Source: Escherichia phage 121Q
Sequence record: NC_025447.1
DNA length: 64,000 bases
Direction: 5' to 3' (one strand)
Shown piece after piece: positions 29,568-49,858 of this stretch. The notes beneath the pieces were generated by a model. That model had not been told where the DNA came from. It saw only the letters and a list, made by a program, of their open reading frames with translations, and ran no database searches. Position 1 is the first letter of the stretch. Each line of letters opens with the position of its first letter. A program made the translations under genes and the position numbers.

Positions 29568-30332
29568 TTAATCCTTTAATAATATGTTAAAATTATCATA
29601 AAAGTACTTTTTTAGTACCGAAATATAGTCTTCATTATACTTCAATCGAAGTAAATTTATTCCATTCTCGGTGCAGTACGTGTTTTTAATTTTATCATTG
29701 TGTTGAGTTTGTTTTAGTGATTTTGTTCCACCCCAATGCTCTGAACATTGAAAATGTTGTTCACCATCATATTCGATACACAAGTTTAAATCTTCAATAT
29801 AAAAATCAAATGGCAATGTTAAAATATTCTTACAATTATCAAATCTCTTTTCTCTAACATATTTAAATGAAGATAATATATTTTCTATATCTGATACTGC
29901 CTTGGATTGAGTACTATCTCTCATACATTTTTCACACCCGTATCTACTATTCAAGTGATTATCAGGTCGCTGGTAGAATATACCATGTATTGGACAAATT
30001 ATTGATATATGTGTTTTATTATTAACATAATTAGCCATACTATAATCAAATTTATTTTTAAATTTAAAATTGGCTTTTTTCTTGAAATTTAAAAAATTAT
30101 GTGGACTTTTTTGCCTATTTGTATTATATTCAATAGAACATTTCATGCATCCTTTGCCACATGTATGGTCATTTGGTGTTTGTAGAAAAAATCCATGTTT
30201 TGCACAGCCAATCCATACTTTTGTTTTAGCATTATGATATTTAACCATACTATAGTCATATCGTATACCATGAACTTTTATCGCATTGGTTACAAATTTA
30301 TATTTTGTCGATCTAGTGGTTGCATATTTCAT
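29568..30332 (-). CDS. Homing-endonuclease-like protein: two zinc-ribbon repeats plus C-terminal PD-(D/E)XK-like motif
   Basis: 254 aa; repeats KVWIGCAKHGFFLQTPNDHTCGKGCMKC and HISIICPIHGIFYQRPDNHLNSRYGCEKC; C-terminal FDFYIEDLNLCIEYDGEQH. Inserted between baseplate genes. Confidence 0.5.
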   Translation of the reverse strand: MKYATTRSTKYKFVTNAIKVHGIRYDYSMVKYHNAKTKVWIGCAKHGFFLQTPNDHTCGKGCMKCSIEYNTNRQKSPHNFLNFKKKANFKFKNKFDYSMANYVNNKTHISIICPIHGIFYQRPDNHLNSRYGCEKCMRDSTQSKAVSDIENILSSFKYVREKRFDNCKNILTLPFDFYIEDLNLCIEYDGEQHFQCSEHWGGTKSLKQTQHNDKIKNTYCTENGINLLRLKYNEDYISVLKKYFYDNFNILLKD

Positions 30333-30367: not shown

Positions 30368-30394
30368 AAAAAGAAAAGCACTCCGAAGAGTGCT
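30368..30394 (-). terminator. Rho-independent terminator
   Basis: Stem AGCACTC/GAGTGCT (30377-30394) followed on the minus strand by a T-run. Confidence 0.5.
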
Positions 30395-30401
30395 TTTGTA
30401 A

Positions 30402-30797
30402 TTATAAAGACGATACTGAATATGTTGCCATTCTGTTATTACTTCTTGCATCGAATACAATAGTAAGTTCTTCTAATGTATCCAATACTACGTACTGTAA
30501 TACAATATTCATTTGGTATCCATATTCTATTCTTGAAATTTGTAATTTTTTAAGATTTAAACGTGGGTCTAAGCTAATTATTCTACGGGCATCTGCTTCT
30601 AAAAGGTTGATAGTATTATAACCTTCCAATTCAAATAGCAAATCCCATGCAATAAACCCATAGTCAGCATCAAATGCTCGTTCACCTTTTTTTGTATTGA
30701 AATGATTCATTAAATCTTGGCGAACCAATTCACTATCATACAATGTTTCAGTTCTACCAACTACAGGGGTAGAAAACCCTTTAAAAACAACTGCCAT
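30402..30797 (-). CDS. Baseplate wedge protein, gp25/gpW-like
   Basis: 131 aa; TKKGERAFDADYGFIAWDLLFE matches my recollection of T4 gp25 TRKGSRPFDPEFGCDLSDQLFE. Confidence 0.6.
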   Translation of the reverse strand: MAVVFKGFSTPVVGRTETLYDSELVRQDLMNHFNTKKGERAFDADYGFIAWDLLFELEGYNTINLLEADARRIISLDPRLNLKKLQISRIEYGYQMNIVLQYVVLDTLEELTIVFDARSNNRMATYSVSSL

Positions 30798-30812: not shown

Positions 30813-31301
30813 TTATACGGATTCAACGATACGTGCCATCTTTTCCGCTCGTGAAGTGGTTTGTTTATACCATGTACTATCACGCAATTCTTTACCAGCA
30901 GTTTTGTAATCAGCTTTACCTAATGCGGTCATTGCTTTTTTAAATTTCAAAACTTTGGTTTTTCCCATTTGGAATACCATTAACCATAATACACGTTGTA
31001 CCTGTACTGGTGCGGTCATACCGAATTGTTCATAAATTGATTTTGCATCATTGTACGCAGTTTGAGCATCTTTGAGAAGAAGTTGGTCAGCTTGAGCTTC
31101 GGTCAAACCATTCTTGAAATTTTCACCAGGAAGAACTAGATGACCATAACCAATAGTATCAAGACCTAAACTGTCTTTATATACCCAAAACTTATCATTT
31201 TTAAAATAACCAAGTTTTTTCTGATAAGCAATAGTTCCTTCAAATTCTTTAATTTCCTTAAAAAATTGCTCATCTGTATTTTTAATTTCCCATTTACTCA
31301 T
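30813..31301 (-). CDS. Endolysin, T4-lysozyme-like (GH24)
   Basis: 162 aa; FEGTIAY...LDTIGYGHL and VLWLMVFQMGKTKVLKFKKAM...WYKQTTSRAEKMARIV parallel T4 lysozyme (MVFQMG, WYNQTPNRAKRV). Confidence 0.85.
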   Translation of the reverse strand: MSKWEIKNTDEQFFKEIKEFEGTIAYQKKLGYFKNDKFWVYKDSLGLDTIGYGHLVLPGENFKNGLTEAQADQLLLKDAQTAYNDAKSIYEQFGMTAPVQVQRVLWLMVFQMGKTKVLKFKKAMTALGKADYKTAGKELRDSTWYKQTTSRAEKMARIVESV

Positions 31302-31337
31302 AAAGATATCCTCGTTTTATTTATAGTGCTAAAATAT

Positions 31338-34001
31338 TTATTGACATGCCTCCAAACGACGAGCCATTAACTCCGCACGGCGTGTGGTTTGGCGATACCA
31401 AGCAGAATTGCGGATTTGTGCCGCTGCTTGTTTATAATTACCTTTTGCCATTTCTGATAACATAGTTTTAAATTTCAATACACCACCTTTACCCATCTGA
31501 AATACCATTTGGCATAGTACTTGTTGAGCAAGATAAGGAGTTTTCATGTTATATGAAGCATAAATTGATTTGGCATCATAAATTGCTTTACTACTATCAC
31601 GAACTAACATATCATTTGCTTGTTGTTCAGTTATTCCATCAGAGAAGTTTTCACCGCTAACAATTAAGTGACCGTAACCAATAGTTGGATATCCACGACT
31701 ATCTAAATAACGCCAGAACTTACCATTACGATAATATCCCTTTGCTTGTTGATATTGTAATGTACCCTCATATTCTTTTAATTCAGAAATAAACTGAGCA
31801 TCACCTGGAACAACTTTCCAATCTATGGCTGTTTTATCAACATTACCTATATTATAAGTTGGTTGCTCAACTGGCGTAGTTGAAACACCACTTCTTTGTG
31901 TTCTTCTTCGACGAGGAACATGTCGTGAACCACGTTGTGAATAACCTGTACCAATTGTTTTAATTTTTGTAGTAACTACTAATTCATCACTATCAACAGA
32001 AGGTTGCACTACTGCTTGAGGTGCAGATTGATTGGTTGCTTTTCCTGCAATTAATGTTTTATTGGCTGCGTCAGAACCAGTACCAGTTTGAGATGCATAA
32101 AATAGACCCGGATCAACTGAACCGCTAAAACCAAGCACGTTAGCTGATGTAACACGTATTTCAAACTGTATAACACCATTTGCTTTACCAACAACTTGGC
32201 CTTTTTGAACAACATCTTTGTTTAATAAATCAGATTGAATATTATAAAATACAGATTTATATCCTGACTTATGTTGTATTAACAGTGCACCATTAGTAAT
32301 TACTATTACACCACCATCGGGTGCAACTATGTCACCTTTACATTGTATTTCCCATCCAGAACGATCTGACTTCCCACCACTTTGTGTTGGAACACCTTTC
32401 CCCCAATAACCATATTGGCGAATAGTACCACTACATGGCATGAACATATGTAAACCTTCATATGTAATACTATATCCAGTCATCCCAGGGTCAGATGTCA
32501 TTAAATCTTGAGATTGCACTTGTTCAGTTTCTGATGTATAGTTAACAAACTGAACAGCTTCAGTGTCTTGTGCTACGGGTAATTCTGGTGATACATCATT
32601 TGCTGGTTGTGGTTGTACTGGTGATTCACTAGAACCACTTCCACCACCTTGTCTTGGTGGTTCAACATAACTACCATGATTTTCAGCGTTAACCCATGCA
32701 GCAATATCATGAATGTGTTCATTAAGACCAGCAGATGGTGTTCTAAAGTTTGGTGCAGTAAATTCAGCAGTACCGCTATTACCACCACTATTAACTGTTA
32801 ATGTTTGTCCACCACCACTAATAATTGCTGATGATGATCCAATTAGGTTTGCAGATGTTGCGGCAGAAATAGAAGCATTTGAACCAGCCGTAATATCAGT
32901 ACTGCTACCACTTTGCATACGTAATGATGCAGCAGTAACTAAACGAAGGTCTGCCCCAGAATTAACAACAACTTGTCCACCAACTTTTGCATCAAGAGCA
33001 CCAATTAGATCTAATTTAGTATTTGCACCAACTCGTGCATTGAAATCTTGTCCGGTTTCAATATTATATGAACGTCCAGCAGTAATATTAATATCTTGAC
33101 CAGCACGAATATTAATATTCTTATCACAGTGCATGTCAATATCACCTTCACCAGTGAATTTTATACGTGCAGTGCCATCACGGTTAATTAAAAGAACATC
33201 ACCAGTAGCTTCTGATAAAAGAAGTTGTGCACCACTACGTGTTTTTATTACGACACCTTCATTTTTACGAGAACCAACACGTGTATCGTTTACTGGGTTA
33301 TTAAATTGTGTATCTTGATATCCATCTGGGTCTTGATCCCACGTTGGTGCTGTTAATTCCTCTTCAGTATATCCATCATCAATAATAAAACTATTACCAC
33401 GTGGCGAAGACATACCATATACAGTACTGGTGGTTTGTCGAGTACTACTACGATTCGCCAACCCAGCTTCTTCGTCATATAAAAGGTTTTGCTTTTTAAG
33501 ACCTGCGATAATTGGAACGTTAGCATATTTGTCTTGCATATCGGTAGTGATAGTGTTACGATCATAGTCAGTAACAGGAAGTGGCATATCAGTTCCACCA
33601 TAATTACTTACTTCAGTTGCCATGCCTGGAACCATAGTATTCATACGCTGGTCATATACACAACCAATCCAATATGCTTGGAATGTACGGGCTTGTGCAA
33701 AAATTACAACAACTGTACACCCTACATCTGGTGGTACTGCCCAAAAACCGTATCCTTTTGGATATTGACCATATGCATCAGCACTTGGAATACCTGGTGT
33801 TTTACCAGCAAAAGGAGACATGTAAGATGCTTCTATCCATGATTCTTTTGAGTTTTTATCACTTTGAGAACCTTGTATCCAAACTTTCAGTTTTCCTGAT
33901 TTAGTTGGATCTCTGTTATCCATAACAGTTGCTAACTGCGGATAAGATGGGTCAAAACGACCCAACTGCTGTTGTGCATACTTTTTACTTGTATCTGCCA
34001 T
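31338..34001 (-). CDS. Baseplate central spike: gp5-like N-terminus, beta-helical repeats, degenerate M23/LytM-like domain, C-terminal T4-lysozyme-like domain
   Basis: 887 aa; repeat region INIRAGQDINITAGRSYNIETGQDFNARVGANTKLDLIG...; M23-like GDIVAPDGGVIVITNGALLIQHKSGYKSVFYNI...VQKGQVVGKANGVIQFEIRV with the HxH motif replaced by QFE; C-terminal EYEGTLQY...PTIGYGHL...MVFQMGKGGVLKF lysozyme domain (about 31338-31829). Confidence 0.7.
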   Translation of the reverse strand: MADTSKKYAQQQLGRFDPSYPQLATVMDNRDPTKSGKLKVWIQGSQSDKNSKESWIEASYMSPFAGKTPGIPSADAYGQYPKGYGFWAVPPDVGCTVVVIFAQARTFQAYWIGCVYDQRMNTMVPGMATEVSNYGGTDMPLPVTDYDRNTITTDMQDKYANVPIIAGLKKQNLLYDEEAGLANRSSTRQTTSTVYGMSSPRGNSFIIDDGYTEEELTAPTWDQDPDGYQDTQFNNPVNDTRVGSRKNEGVVIKTRSGAQLLLSEATGDVLLINRDGTARIKFTGEGDIDMHCDKNINIRAGQDINITAGRSYNIETGQDFNARVGANTKLDLIGALDAKVGGQVVVNSGADLRLVTAASLRMQSGSSTDITAGSNASISAATSANLIGSSSAIISGGGQTLTVNSGGNSGTAEFTAPNFRTPSAGLNEHIHDIAAWVNAENHGSYVEPPRQGGGSGSSESPVQPQPANDVSPELPVAQDTEAVQFVNYTSETEQVQSQDLMTSDPGMTGYSITYEGLHMFMPCSGTIRQYGYWGKGVPTQSGGKSDRSGWEIQCKGDIVAPDGGVIVITNGALLIQHKSGYKSVFYNIQSDLLNKDVVQKGQVVGKANGVIQFEIRVTSANVLGFSGSVDPGLFYASQTGTGSDAANKTLIAGKATNQSAPQAVVQPSVDSDELVVTTKIKTIGTGYSQRGSRHVPRRRRTQRSGVSTTPVEQPTYNIGNVDKTAIDWKVVPGDAQFISELKEYEGTLQYQQAKGYYRNGKFWRYLDSRGYPTIGYGHLIVSGENFSDGITEQQANDMLVRDSSKAIYDAKSIYASYNMKTPYLAQQVLCQMVFQMGKGGVLKFKTMLSEMAKGNYKQAAAQIRNSAWYRQTTRRAELMARRLEACQ

Positions 34002-37356: not shown

Positions 37357-37364
37357 TATTTATA
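37357..37364 (-). promoter_or_regulatory. T4-type late promoter TATAAATA
   Basis: Minus strand reads TATAAATA about 36 nt upstream of the ATG at 37321. Confidence 0.45.
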
Positions 37365-37452: not shown

Positions 37453-38292
37453 ATGACAAATAGACCAAAGCGTAAAAAGTATCTCAATAATGCTGATTTA
37501 CTTCGTGAAATACAAAAAAGTAAGATTTCATACTGCTGGTTATTAGACAAATCATATAGTATGTATGATTATATTGTTTTTCATGAGTCAGAAATTACTG
37601 CTGAGTTACTTGAAAAAGCCAAAGCAGCACGAATCAAACGACTAAACAATGAAATGCTTGATAGTATTCGTGAAAAGGAAAGTATGAGTGCTAAAAAAGC
37701 TAAAGAATATGCAGATGAAAATAATTTAGTTATCACTGATGTTCCAATCGATGAAGTTGTTATTCGTGTTATCACTGATGAACATATTCCACCCGACACT
37801 AGAGTTAACTTTGAACCATTCAAGCATTACATTGTAGATAATGAAGGAATTCTCTATGAAGTATGTCGTTCTCATTGGAAAGGAGATCTTGAAACTGGTG
37901 AATTCAGTACTGTTCATGGTAAAATTACAAATGAACTAGGGAAGATGTTCATTAAACTTGCTGAGGAAATCTCTCATAAATCTAATTACAGAAACTATAC
38001 ATACTTAGATGAAATGATGGGTGATGCAAGAATACAATTAGTTAAAAACGCACTTCTCTTTAAAGAGAGCATTCTTTATAAAAAAGATAAACCAGCAGTT
38101 CAGCTAAATCCTTTCTCTTACTATACATCATTCGTAAACAATAGTTTTCGTTCTATATTGAATAGTGAGAAAAATGTTCGAAATATACGTGATGATTTAC
38201 TTGAAATGCATGGCTTTACGCCATCACATACACGTCAAATTGAAATTGAATTGAACATGATTGAAAGGAAAAATGAAGATGGCTCTGTTTGA
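37453..38292 (+). CDS. Putative late-transcription sigma factor, gp55-like
   Basis: N-terminus PKRKKYLNNADLLREIQKSK resembles my recollection of T4 gp55 (PKYNYVNNKELLQAII); adjacent to the gp47/gp46 homologs as in T4; TATAAATA motifs occur upstream of structural genes. Longer than T4 gp55, so tentative. Confidence 0.45.
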   Translation: MTNRPKRKKYLNNADLLREIQKSKISYCWLLDKSYSMYDYIVFHESEITAELLEKAKAARIKRLNNEMLDSIREKESMSAKKAKEYADENNLVITDVPIDEVVIRVITDEHIPPDTRVNFEPFKHYIVDNEGILYEVCRSHWKGDLETGEFSTVHGKITNELGKMFIKLAEEISHKSNYRNYTYLDEMMGDARIQLVKNALLFKESILYKKDKPAVQLNPFSYYTSFVNNSFRSILNSEKNVRNIRDDLLEMHGFTPSHTRQIEIELNMIERKNEDGSV

Positions 38293-49850: not shown

Positions 49851-49858
49851 TATAAATA
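49851..49858 (+). promoter_or_regulatory. T4-type late promoter TATAAATA upstream of the scaffold gene
   Basis: TATAAATA at 49851-49858, about 48 nt upstream of the ATG at 49906; overlapped by an inverted repeat at 49856-49881. Confidence 0.45.

Follow-up and report, generated by a model that had tools for sequence, protein, structure and literature searches.

In Escherichia phage 121Q the central spike of the tail ends in a lysozyme domain that is, by sequence comparison, a paralogue of the small lysozyme encoded by the adjacent gene. We analysed a stretch of 64,000 nucleotides (nt) from its genome (record NC_025447.1; hereafter the window), in which the two genes lie on the minus strand with a spacer of 36 nt between them: the gene for the central spike or tail-associated lysozyme, of 887 amino acids (aa), occupies 31338..34001 (Pfam PF04717, DUF2345 and PF00959), and that for the free GH24 lysozyme, of 162 aa, occupies 30813..31301 (PF00959, 37 bits). 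The explanation that we consider probable when taken as a whole combines a spike lysozyme with an intact active site, a free lysozyme that is made late and acts at lysis, and an old duplication independent of that in phage T4. The relationship between the two domains is itself already known from the RaK2 (2013) and CBB (2017) papers; what is added here is the T4-independent origin, the age of the duplication, and the assignment of the spike regions flanking the beta-helix to an apex-like HxH motif and a degenerate LytM domain. A first-pass annotation of the window had proposed the paralogy, likened it to that of T4 gp5 and gene e, suggested independent or rearranged domain capture, and recommended that both domains be aligned and placed in a phylogeny.

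BLASTP aligned residues 4–161 of the free protein with residues 728–885 of the spike without gaps, giving 82 identities in 158 positions (52%), 70% positives and E=7e-57, a sequence similarity far beyond chance. The motifs that the first-pass annotation had described as shared nearly residue for residue (E.EG, GY.TIGYGHL, MVFQMGK..VLKFK and WY.QTT.RAE.MAR) all fall within this alignment, and the interval in which it had placed the pair, 30813–31829, corresponds to the free gene together with the GH24 domain of the spike, that is, residues 726–887 plus the stop codon (31338..31826, minus strand, from the translation; PF00959, 44.5 bits). The claim of paralogy was likewise upheld, since 52% ungapped identity at this E value places the two modules in one GH24 subfamily. 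By its sequence the window belongs to Asteriusvirus and represents a Rak2-like jumbo coliphage approximately 96% identical to phAPEC6: over a 3.7-kb region, identity is 95.9% with phAPEC6 and 95.5% with PBECO4, and the region finds matches in 42 related records. Asteriusvirus consists of Rak2-like jumbo myoviruses with genomes of approximately 350 kb.

Both domains bear the marks of a T4-type lysozyme. Their Pfam scores exceed the 22.3-bit gathering score of PF00959, and phmmer searches of the PDB returned T4 lysozyme and the lysozyme domain of gp5 (E~1e-9 to 1e-11; E~1e-9 for the free protein). The equivalents of T4 Glu11, Asp20 and Thr26 are E21, D43 and T49 in the free protein and E745, D767 and T773 in the spike. 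Glu and Asp are kept together in 77/77 free and 91/92 spike homologues; Thr is kept in 77/77 free copies but in only 65/92 spike domains, 20/92 of which, including that of SE_PL, have Asp instead. The GH24 domain itself is retained in all 86 of 86 full-length spike homologues. An AlphaFold2 (AF2) prediction of the free protein, made like our other models for the monomer, had a mean predicted local distance difference test score (pLDDT) of 94.9 and a predicted template-modelling score of 0.88, and its top Foldseek matches were all T4 lysozyme (template-modelling scores 0.65–0.73); the spike GH24 domain is predicted to share this two-lobed fold through its 52% ungapped identity to the modelled protein. 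Activity has been reported for an orthologue: purified LysUE1 of phage UE-S1 lowers the turbidity and the colony-forming units of Escherichia coli, and does so more strongly with ethylenediaminetetraacetic acid (PMC12805682). The primers with which LysUE1 was cloned match both ends of the 162-aa gene in the window, and the product of this gene has 100% identity to phAPEC6 gp242. An antibacterial preparation of the free enzyme from a close relative already exists.

Each Rak2-like genome contains three separate GH24 places, as found by tblastn with the 162-aa query in Asteriusvirus, K64-1/RaK2, SE_PL, XbC2, pEa_SNUABM_47 and fHe-Yen9-04. The third paralogue, phAPEC6 gp293c, is approximately 308 aa long and has a hydrophobic segment at its N-terminus, followed by a LysM motif, with the GH24 domain at the C-terminus (hereafter the TM type, for its transmembrane segment). 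It lies about 60 kb from the spike and free genes, outside the window, within which tblastn returned only the two copies already described; it is kept in 72/72 related records. We aligned six representatives each of the free, spike and TM-type copies with prophage lysozymes of approximately 150 aa, T4 e and gp5 using MAFFT. The free, spike, TM-type and prophage-type copies share an insertion of approximately 15 residues that directly follows the catalytic Glu (in the window it reads AYQKKLGYFKNDKFW) and that T4 e and gp5 do not have, and all four lack a long loop common to T4 e and gp5.

Phylogenies were distance-based and rested on about 160 columns. A neighbour-joining tree of 32 sequences (159 columns, 500 bootstraps) grouped T4 e with gp5 (100%), the TM-type copies (100%) and the spike domains (90%), while joining free and spike copies with 21% support. 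A second neighbour-joining tree, of 223 domains (161 columns, 200 bootstraps) and aimed at the monophyly of free and spike copies, recovered the T4 pair (76%) and the TM type (100%) with a backbone supported at 10–21%. The phylogeny proposed in the first-pass annotation thus set T4 e and gp5 apart as a clade of their own, whereas the monophyly of the free and spike copies, at 10–21%, was weakly supported; the branching order among free, spike and prophage-type copies was not resolved by either neighbour-joining tree. Because of this, we turned to score distributions and indels for the kinship of free and spike copies. Mean identity is 53% between free and spike copies, 46% between free and prophage-type copies, 32% between free and TM-type copies and 30% between free copies and T4. 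Median phmmer scores from the free protein are 157 against spike domains, 132 against the prophage type, 69 against the TM type and 39 against T4; from the spike domain of the window they are 184 against free copies and 117 against the prophage type. Among PHROG families the free protein matches that of the spike best (1.7e-63), ahead of the TM-type family (1.5e-24) and generic endolysins (5e-15). On these similarity scores, though not on a resolved tree, the free and spike copies are more closely related to one another than either is to any other group.

The same evidence bears on whether the pair goes back to the duplication that gave rise to T4 e and gp5, with the domains of the spike reshuffled afterwards. 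Rak2-like phages do possess T4-like baseplate genes (gp25-like and wedge) and a gp55-like late sigma factor, and the two systems run parallel in function. Nevertheless, T4 e and gp5 group to the exclusion of every Rak2-type copy in both trees, score 116 bits against one another and do not exceed 66 bits with anything else, and have the long loop while lacking the 15-residue insertion; furthermore, the N-terminal half of the Rak2 spike is closer to VgrG- and gpV-type spikes with an HxH motif than to gp5. A shared origin with the T4 pair is hence very improbable, and the clustering of the T4 pair, the gap in scores and the distinct shared indels argue for an independent one. Of the alternatives offered in the first-pass annotation, independent capture stood and rearrangement did not.

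The duplication is also old on the evidence of the two copies. Their DNA is 58% identical overall and 47% identical at third codon positions, with a longest identical run of 13 nt, which indicates an old duplication as opposed to a recent repeat or an artefact of assembly. That the copies lie only 36 nt apart on one strand, and that free-spike identity within a genome is higher in the Mimasvirus/Eneladusvirus group (57–64%) than in Asteriusvirus (51%), might be expected of a recent duplication or of gene conversion continuing between neighbours. For the window, however, we reject concerted evolution or recent conversion, because there is neither surplus identity within the genome nor a long identical run of DNA: the free copy shares 50.6% of residues with its own spike domain, against 52.5% with that of XbC2. 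Both orthologous groups are moreover kept across genera. The most divergent spike domain, that of SE_PL, is 40% identical to its own free copy. We give recency or conversion hardly any credence, and the comparisons indicate that the duplication predates the divergence of the Rak2-like genera. In the history that we propose, a single ancestral gene in a distinct subfamily of GH24, marked by the 15-residue insertion after the catalytic Glu and without the T4 loop, would have duplicated before these genera split, and one duplicate would have been joined to the C-terminus of a gpV/VgrG-type spike, independently of the duplication of T4 e and gp5.

The spike that received this domain has an unusual anatomy, which we reconstructed from an alignment of 47 homologues. 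In a full-length profile search of the PDB, mutants of T4 lysozyme crowded out other matches, and sub-alignments were therefore searched domain by domain. An OB-fold occupies residues 23–116 (33654..33935, minus strand; PF04717 Phage_base_V, 29.8 bits against a cut-off of 23.8), and a triple beta-helix of the VgrG/gp5 kind occupies residues ~250–420 (32742..33254, minus strand; DUF2345, 34.9 bits). A profile of the N-terminal 470 residues matches type VI secretion system (T6SS) VgrG spikes in the PDB (E=2e-5 to 1e-4); the same search gave no match to gpV or gp138. Between the OB-fold and the helix (residues 117–250), where gp5 has its inserted lysozyme, Pfam detected no lysozyme signal. At the end of the helix stands an HxH motif, H429-I-H431 (32709..32717, minus strand, checked in translation), which is invariant in the 47 homologues and often extended to HxHxH in relatives. 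We regard H429 and H431 as resembling the histidine cage of an Apex, with metal binding only putative. The motif is placed in the middle of the protein and not near its C-terminus, being followed by 456 residues that begin with a linker rich in Gly, Ser and Pro.

Beyond this linker lies a domain like LytM or peptidase M23 (residues ~514–654; 32040..32462, minus strand), which is kept throughout the spike family. Its PF01551 score of 19.6 bits is under the 28.7-bit cut-off, although PF01551 is also precomputed on several orthologous spikes; profile searches of the PDB returned LasA (9e-6), SpoIIQ, DipM and EnvC. The AF2 core has a pLDDT of ~90, and its best Foldseek matches are the LytM domains of DipM, PrgK and EnvC (E~1e-6, with LytM matches to 1e-4). 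The HxH of M23 peptidases reads 'IQF' ('IQFEIR') in the window and the 'YxHL' reads 'YNIQ'; across 20 spike homologues neither the His/Asp zinc ligands of the HxxxD and HxH motifs nor the catalytic His of M23 are conserved, and H577, in an 'ITH' strand, is the sole His of the domain kept in at least 90%. Because the zinc and catalytic residues are gone and the Pfam score is below threshold, the domain is called degenerate and not an active M23 peptidase. A basic linker, QRGSRHVPRRRR (residues 689–700; 31902..31937, minus strand, checked in translation), then leads to the lysozyme. Its consensus is QRGSxxVPRR, with G691 and P696 invariant and S692 present in at least 90% of 47 spikes, and AF2 confidence here is low; a hinge or a processing site is our guess. 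The order is thus OB-fold, beta-helix, further domains and a C-terminal lysozyme, and the difference from gp5 noted in the first-pass annotation is real.

In relatives, published mass spectrometry shows the orthologous spike to be a component of the virion: phAPEC6 gp241 was detected with 7 peptides (PMC7247149) and CBB_240 with 3 (PMC5259590), and RaK2 gp078 went undetected (PMC3622015). The spike would cut peptidoglycan locally as the tail crosses the envelope. Its domain map raises the question of how a membrane is pierced with cargo attached past the tip, a geometry of which we found no earlier description for phage spikes in the literature. Such cargo should blunt piercing, and so might be folded back along the helix, or cut at the QRGSxxVPRR linker and carried or released separately; both fold-back and cleavage at the basic linker are guesses. 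More speculatively, the spike may be a phage counterpart of the 'evolved' VgrG, with a complete gpV-like piercing spike (OB-fold, beta-helix and HxH apex) and three dead LytM and three active lysozyme domains tethered past its tip by flexible linkers, the free lysozyme being perhaps an evolutionary 'spare' of the cargo and not a classical endolysin; we hold this idea tentatively and think it rather unlikely as a whole.

Sites resembling T4 late promoters suggest how the free gene might be expressed. The T4-type late-promoter consensus TATAAATA occurs at 31318..31325 (minus strand), within the 36-nt spacer and 16 nt before the ATG of the free lysozyme, and is followed by a ribosome-binding site (GAGGA). 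A second copy, at 37357..37364 (minus strand), lies 35 nt before the baseplate unit's opening gene, which encodes a 243-aa protein. The window contains seven such sites, at 31318, 37357, 42007 and 43893 on the minus strand and at 49851, 51060 and 61195 on the plus strand. Overall they are not enriched in the window (7 observed, 11 expected by chance), for which reason any significance lies in their placement alone: although the window is approximately 93% coding, 7/7 are intergenic and precede an ATG of their own strand by 16–56 nt. A gene for a gp55-like late sigma factor is present at 37453..38292 (plus strand), and these observations suggest that T4-style late promoters may operate at the TATAAATA sites. 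If so, the free lysozyme could be produced in larger amounts than the three-copy spike. The site before the free gene is kept in phAPEC6, PBECO4 and K64-1; telling against its importance, it is absent from SE_PL, XbC2, pEa47, Yen9-04 and CBB, and so limited to Asteriusvirus/Alcyoneusvirus, and it would leave a leader of 16 nt, which is unusually short. A scan for sigma-70 promoters around the genes was uninformative, with 42 sites found and 41.8 expected.

The role of the free protein is the weakest link in our explanation. The first-pass annotation called it a free endolysin, and as stated this label did not survive: the endolysin predicted in the literature is the third GH24 paralogue, and the free gene lies inside the baseplate operon. 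We suppose that late transcription of the baseplate unit would supply the free protein, perhaps with extra output from a TATAAATA promoter of its own, and that the protein most likely acts from within at lysis, beside or redundantly with the TM-type paralogue; of this lysis role in particular we are only modestly persuaded. It has neither a signal peptide nor a transmembrane segment (maximum Kyte-Doolittle 19-mer 0.89), and is a soluble GH24 catalytic domain without any added docking module. It was missing from two independent virion proteomes, of phAPEC6 and CBB, in which the spike was present (PMC7247149, PMC5259590), and each virion already receives three lysozyme domains from the spike. 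The nearest relatives of the free protein outside jumbo phages are prophage lysozymes of approximately 150 aa encoded in the late region after the tail genes, beside small open reading frames (ORFs), which is a typical position for an endolysin.

The alternative is that the free lysozyme is a low-copy enzyme associated with the baseplate or its assembly and used at infection, with the TM-type paralogue alone lysing the cell from within. This we think distinctly less probable, yet a number of observations weigh on its side and against a lysis role. In every genus examined the 162-aa gene sits within the baseplate operon, strictly between the spike and gp25-like genes, in the orientation of its neighbours and with spacers of merely 36 and 15 nt. 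Neither a holin nor a spanin adjoins it, the neighbours being the spike, gp25-like and wedge genes, and in many records it is labelled a baseplate or tail lysozyme. The endolysin role was given in the CBB paper to the SAR-like (signal-anchor-release) TM-type paralogue, which was reported to be toxic when expressed (PMC5259590); its N-terminal segment is weakly hydrophobic, as is typical of SAR endolysins, and it is present in all 72 related genomes. Mass spectrometry of virions also missed genuine low-copy baseplate proteins, namely the gp25-like protein of phAPEC6 and CBB, and the spike of RaK2 (PMC7247149, PMC5259590, PMC3622015), so absence of the free protein from virions is weak evidence. 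As for evidence of packaging in a related jumbo phage, the virion-detected lysozyme PA5oct gp173 was considered and dropped, as it is no orthologue (BLASTP E=0.005 over 41 residues).

No lysis cassette was identified around the TM-type gene. No holin was identified for the RaK2 phage group in the RaK2 paper (PMC3622015), and in phAPEC6, RaK2, SE_PL and XbC2 the ORFs adjacent to the TM-type paralogue have no transmembrane segments that would indicate a holin or spanin; the exception nearby is a 43-aa ORF with a transmembrane segment, two genes upstream in phAPEC6. The immediate upstream neighbour has the look of a 2H phosphoesterase, with two H-x-T/S motifs. An element of approximately 25 nt (GTAGAAAGTCCaaAGnGaCTTTgTGCA) stands ~80–100 nt upstream of the start codon of the TM-type gene and is kept across genera while its flanks diverge; this may represent an RNA hairpin or else a promoter element.

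The baseplate run in the window reads 243-aa structural protein, 104-aa wedge, 749-aa structural protein, spike, free lysozyme, gp25-like protein and large wedge, in the order of the PBECO4 annotation. The order spike, free lysozyme, gp25-like protein and wedge is kept in K64-1, SE_PL, XbC2, pEa_SNUABM_47 and fHe-Yen9-04, representing five other genera. In the Klebsiella phage K64-1 a 1.8-kb insertion that holds two ORFs on the opposite strand (160 and 140 aa) separates the spike and free lysozyme genes, and probably corresponds to RaK2 ORF074-077. The gene for the gp25-like baseplate wedge protein (30402..30797, minus strand; PF04965, 35.1 bits; PHROG 43) begins 15 nt past the stop codon of the free lysozyme and would be the final gene of the transcription unit. 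Directly 3' of it is a strong terminator-like hairpin with a 10-base-pair (bp) stem and a run of T (30374-30397, minus strand), suggesting that the baseplate unit ends here, one gene beyond the free lysozyme. Between the gp25-like and large wedge genes lies an HNH/homing-endonuclease gene of 254 aa (29568-30332, minus strand; PHROG 559, 1.6e-57; Pfam DUF723). It is found at the same site in 2/22 related phage records only, JP4 (97.8%) and JNE01 (83%), while in phAPEC6 and PBECO4 the corresponding interval is only ~100 bp long; the gene seems to be a mobile element.

The nearest known systems are those of the relatives themselves. RaK2 gp078 (an 886-aa spike), gp073 (free) and gp029 (TM type) form an orthologous set that agrees with the phage of the window in gene order and in the architecture of the spike, and CBB_240, CBB_239 and CBB_187, like phAPEC6 gp241, gp242 and gp293, are the same three paralogues as in the phage group of the window. 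The RaK2 paper listed the three lysozymes ORF029, ORF073 and ORF078, gave the lysozyme domains of ORF073 and ORF078 as 66% similar, and called the spike a tail lysozyme of unusual size and odd domain composition, with a beta-helix, unassigned flanks and a C-terminal lysozyme (PMC3622015); the CBB paper again listed all three lysozymes and contrasted the domain order with that of T4 gp5 (PMC5259590). Relative to RaK2, CBB and phAPEC6 the window differs in no essential kind, having only the added HNH gene just downstream of the unit.

For the spike, three further comparisons apply. With P2 gpV, phi92 gp138 and R-pyocin PA0616 it has in common an OB-fold, an intertwined beta-helix and an HxH immediately after the helix, HxH being the signature by which the iron-binding Apex of P2 gpV-type spikes is recognised (bioRxiv 10.1101/2023.02.25.529910). 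In gpV-type spikes, however, the motif makes up the piercing tip, ~12 residues short of the C-terminus, whereas in the window a further 456 residues come after it. The middle domain has the LytM fold of EnvC, NlpD, DipM and SpoIIQ without the metal-binding and catalytic histidines; EnvC-type LytM factors are bacterial regulators or scaffolds for cell-wall amidases, and no such partner is known for the spike. 'Evolved' VgrGs of the T6SS bear C-terminal effectors, an example being the peptidoglycan-degrading VgrG-3 of Vibrio cholerae; VgrG has a gp27-like N-terminal module, and the enzymatic domain of VgrG-3 is not known to belong to GH24. The evolved VgrG and the spike of the window both follow a beta-helix with wall-degrading cargo on a linker in one polypeptide, although the spike has no gp27-like module and is part of a phage virion and not of a secretion system, so that the likeness is one of working and not of family.

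The comparison with T4 is the most instructive, and the parallel drawn in the first-pass annotation holds: each system pairs a soluble GH24 lysozyme of ~160 aa with a paralogous GH24 domain in the spike, with ~47–52% identity within the pair. T4 gp5 and the spike of the window are alike in their N-terminal OB-fold and their Glu/Asp/Thr triad. In gp5 the lysozyme lies between the OB-fold and a C-terminal beta-helix capped by the PAAR protein gp5.4, while in the window the beta-helix and HxH come first and the lysozyme is C-terminal, after the LytM-like domain. T4 e is located outside the baseplate operon and the free gene of the window inside it, and T4 has no counterpart of the third, TM-type paralogue. 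The Rak2-like phages would thus provide a second independent case in which a phage has duplicated a lysozyme into its tail spike, suggesting that this solution is easily reached.

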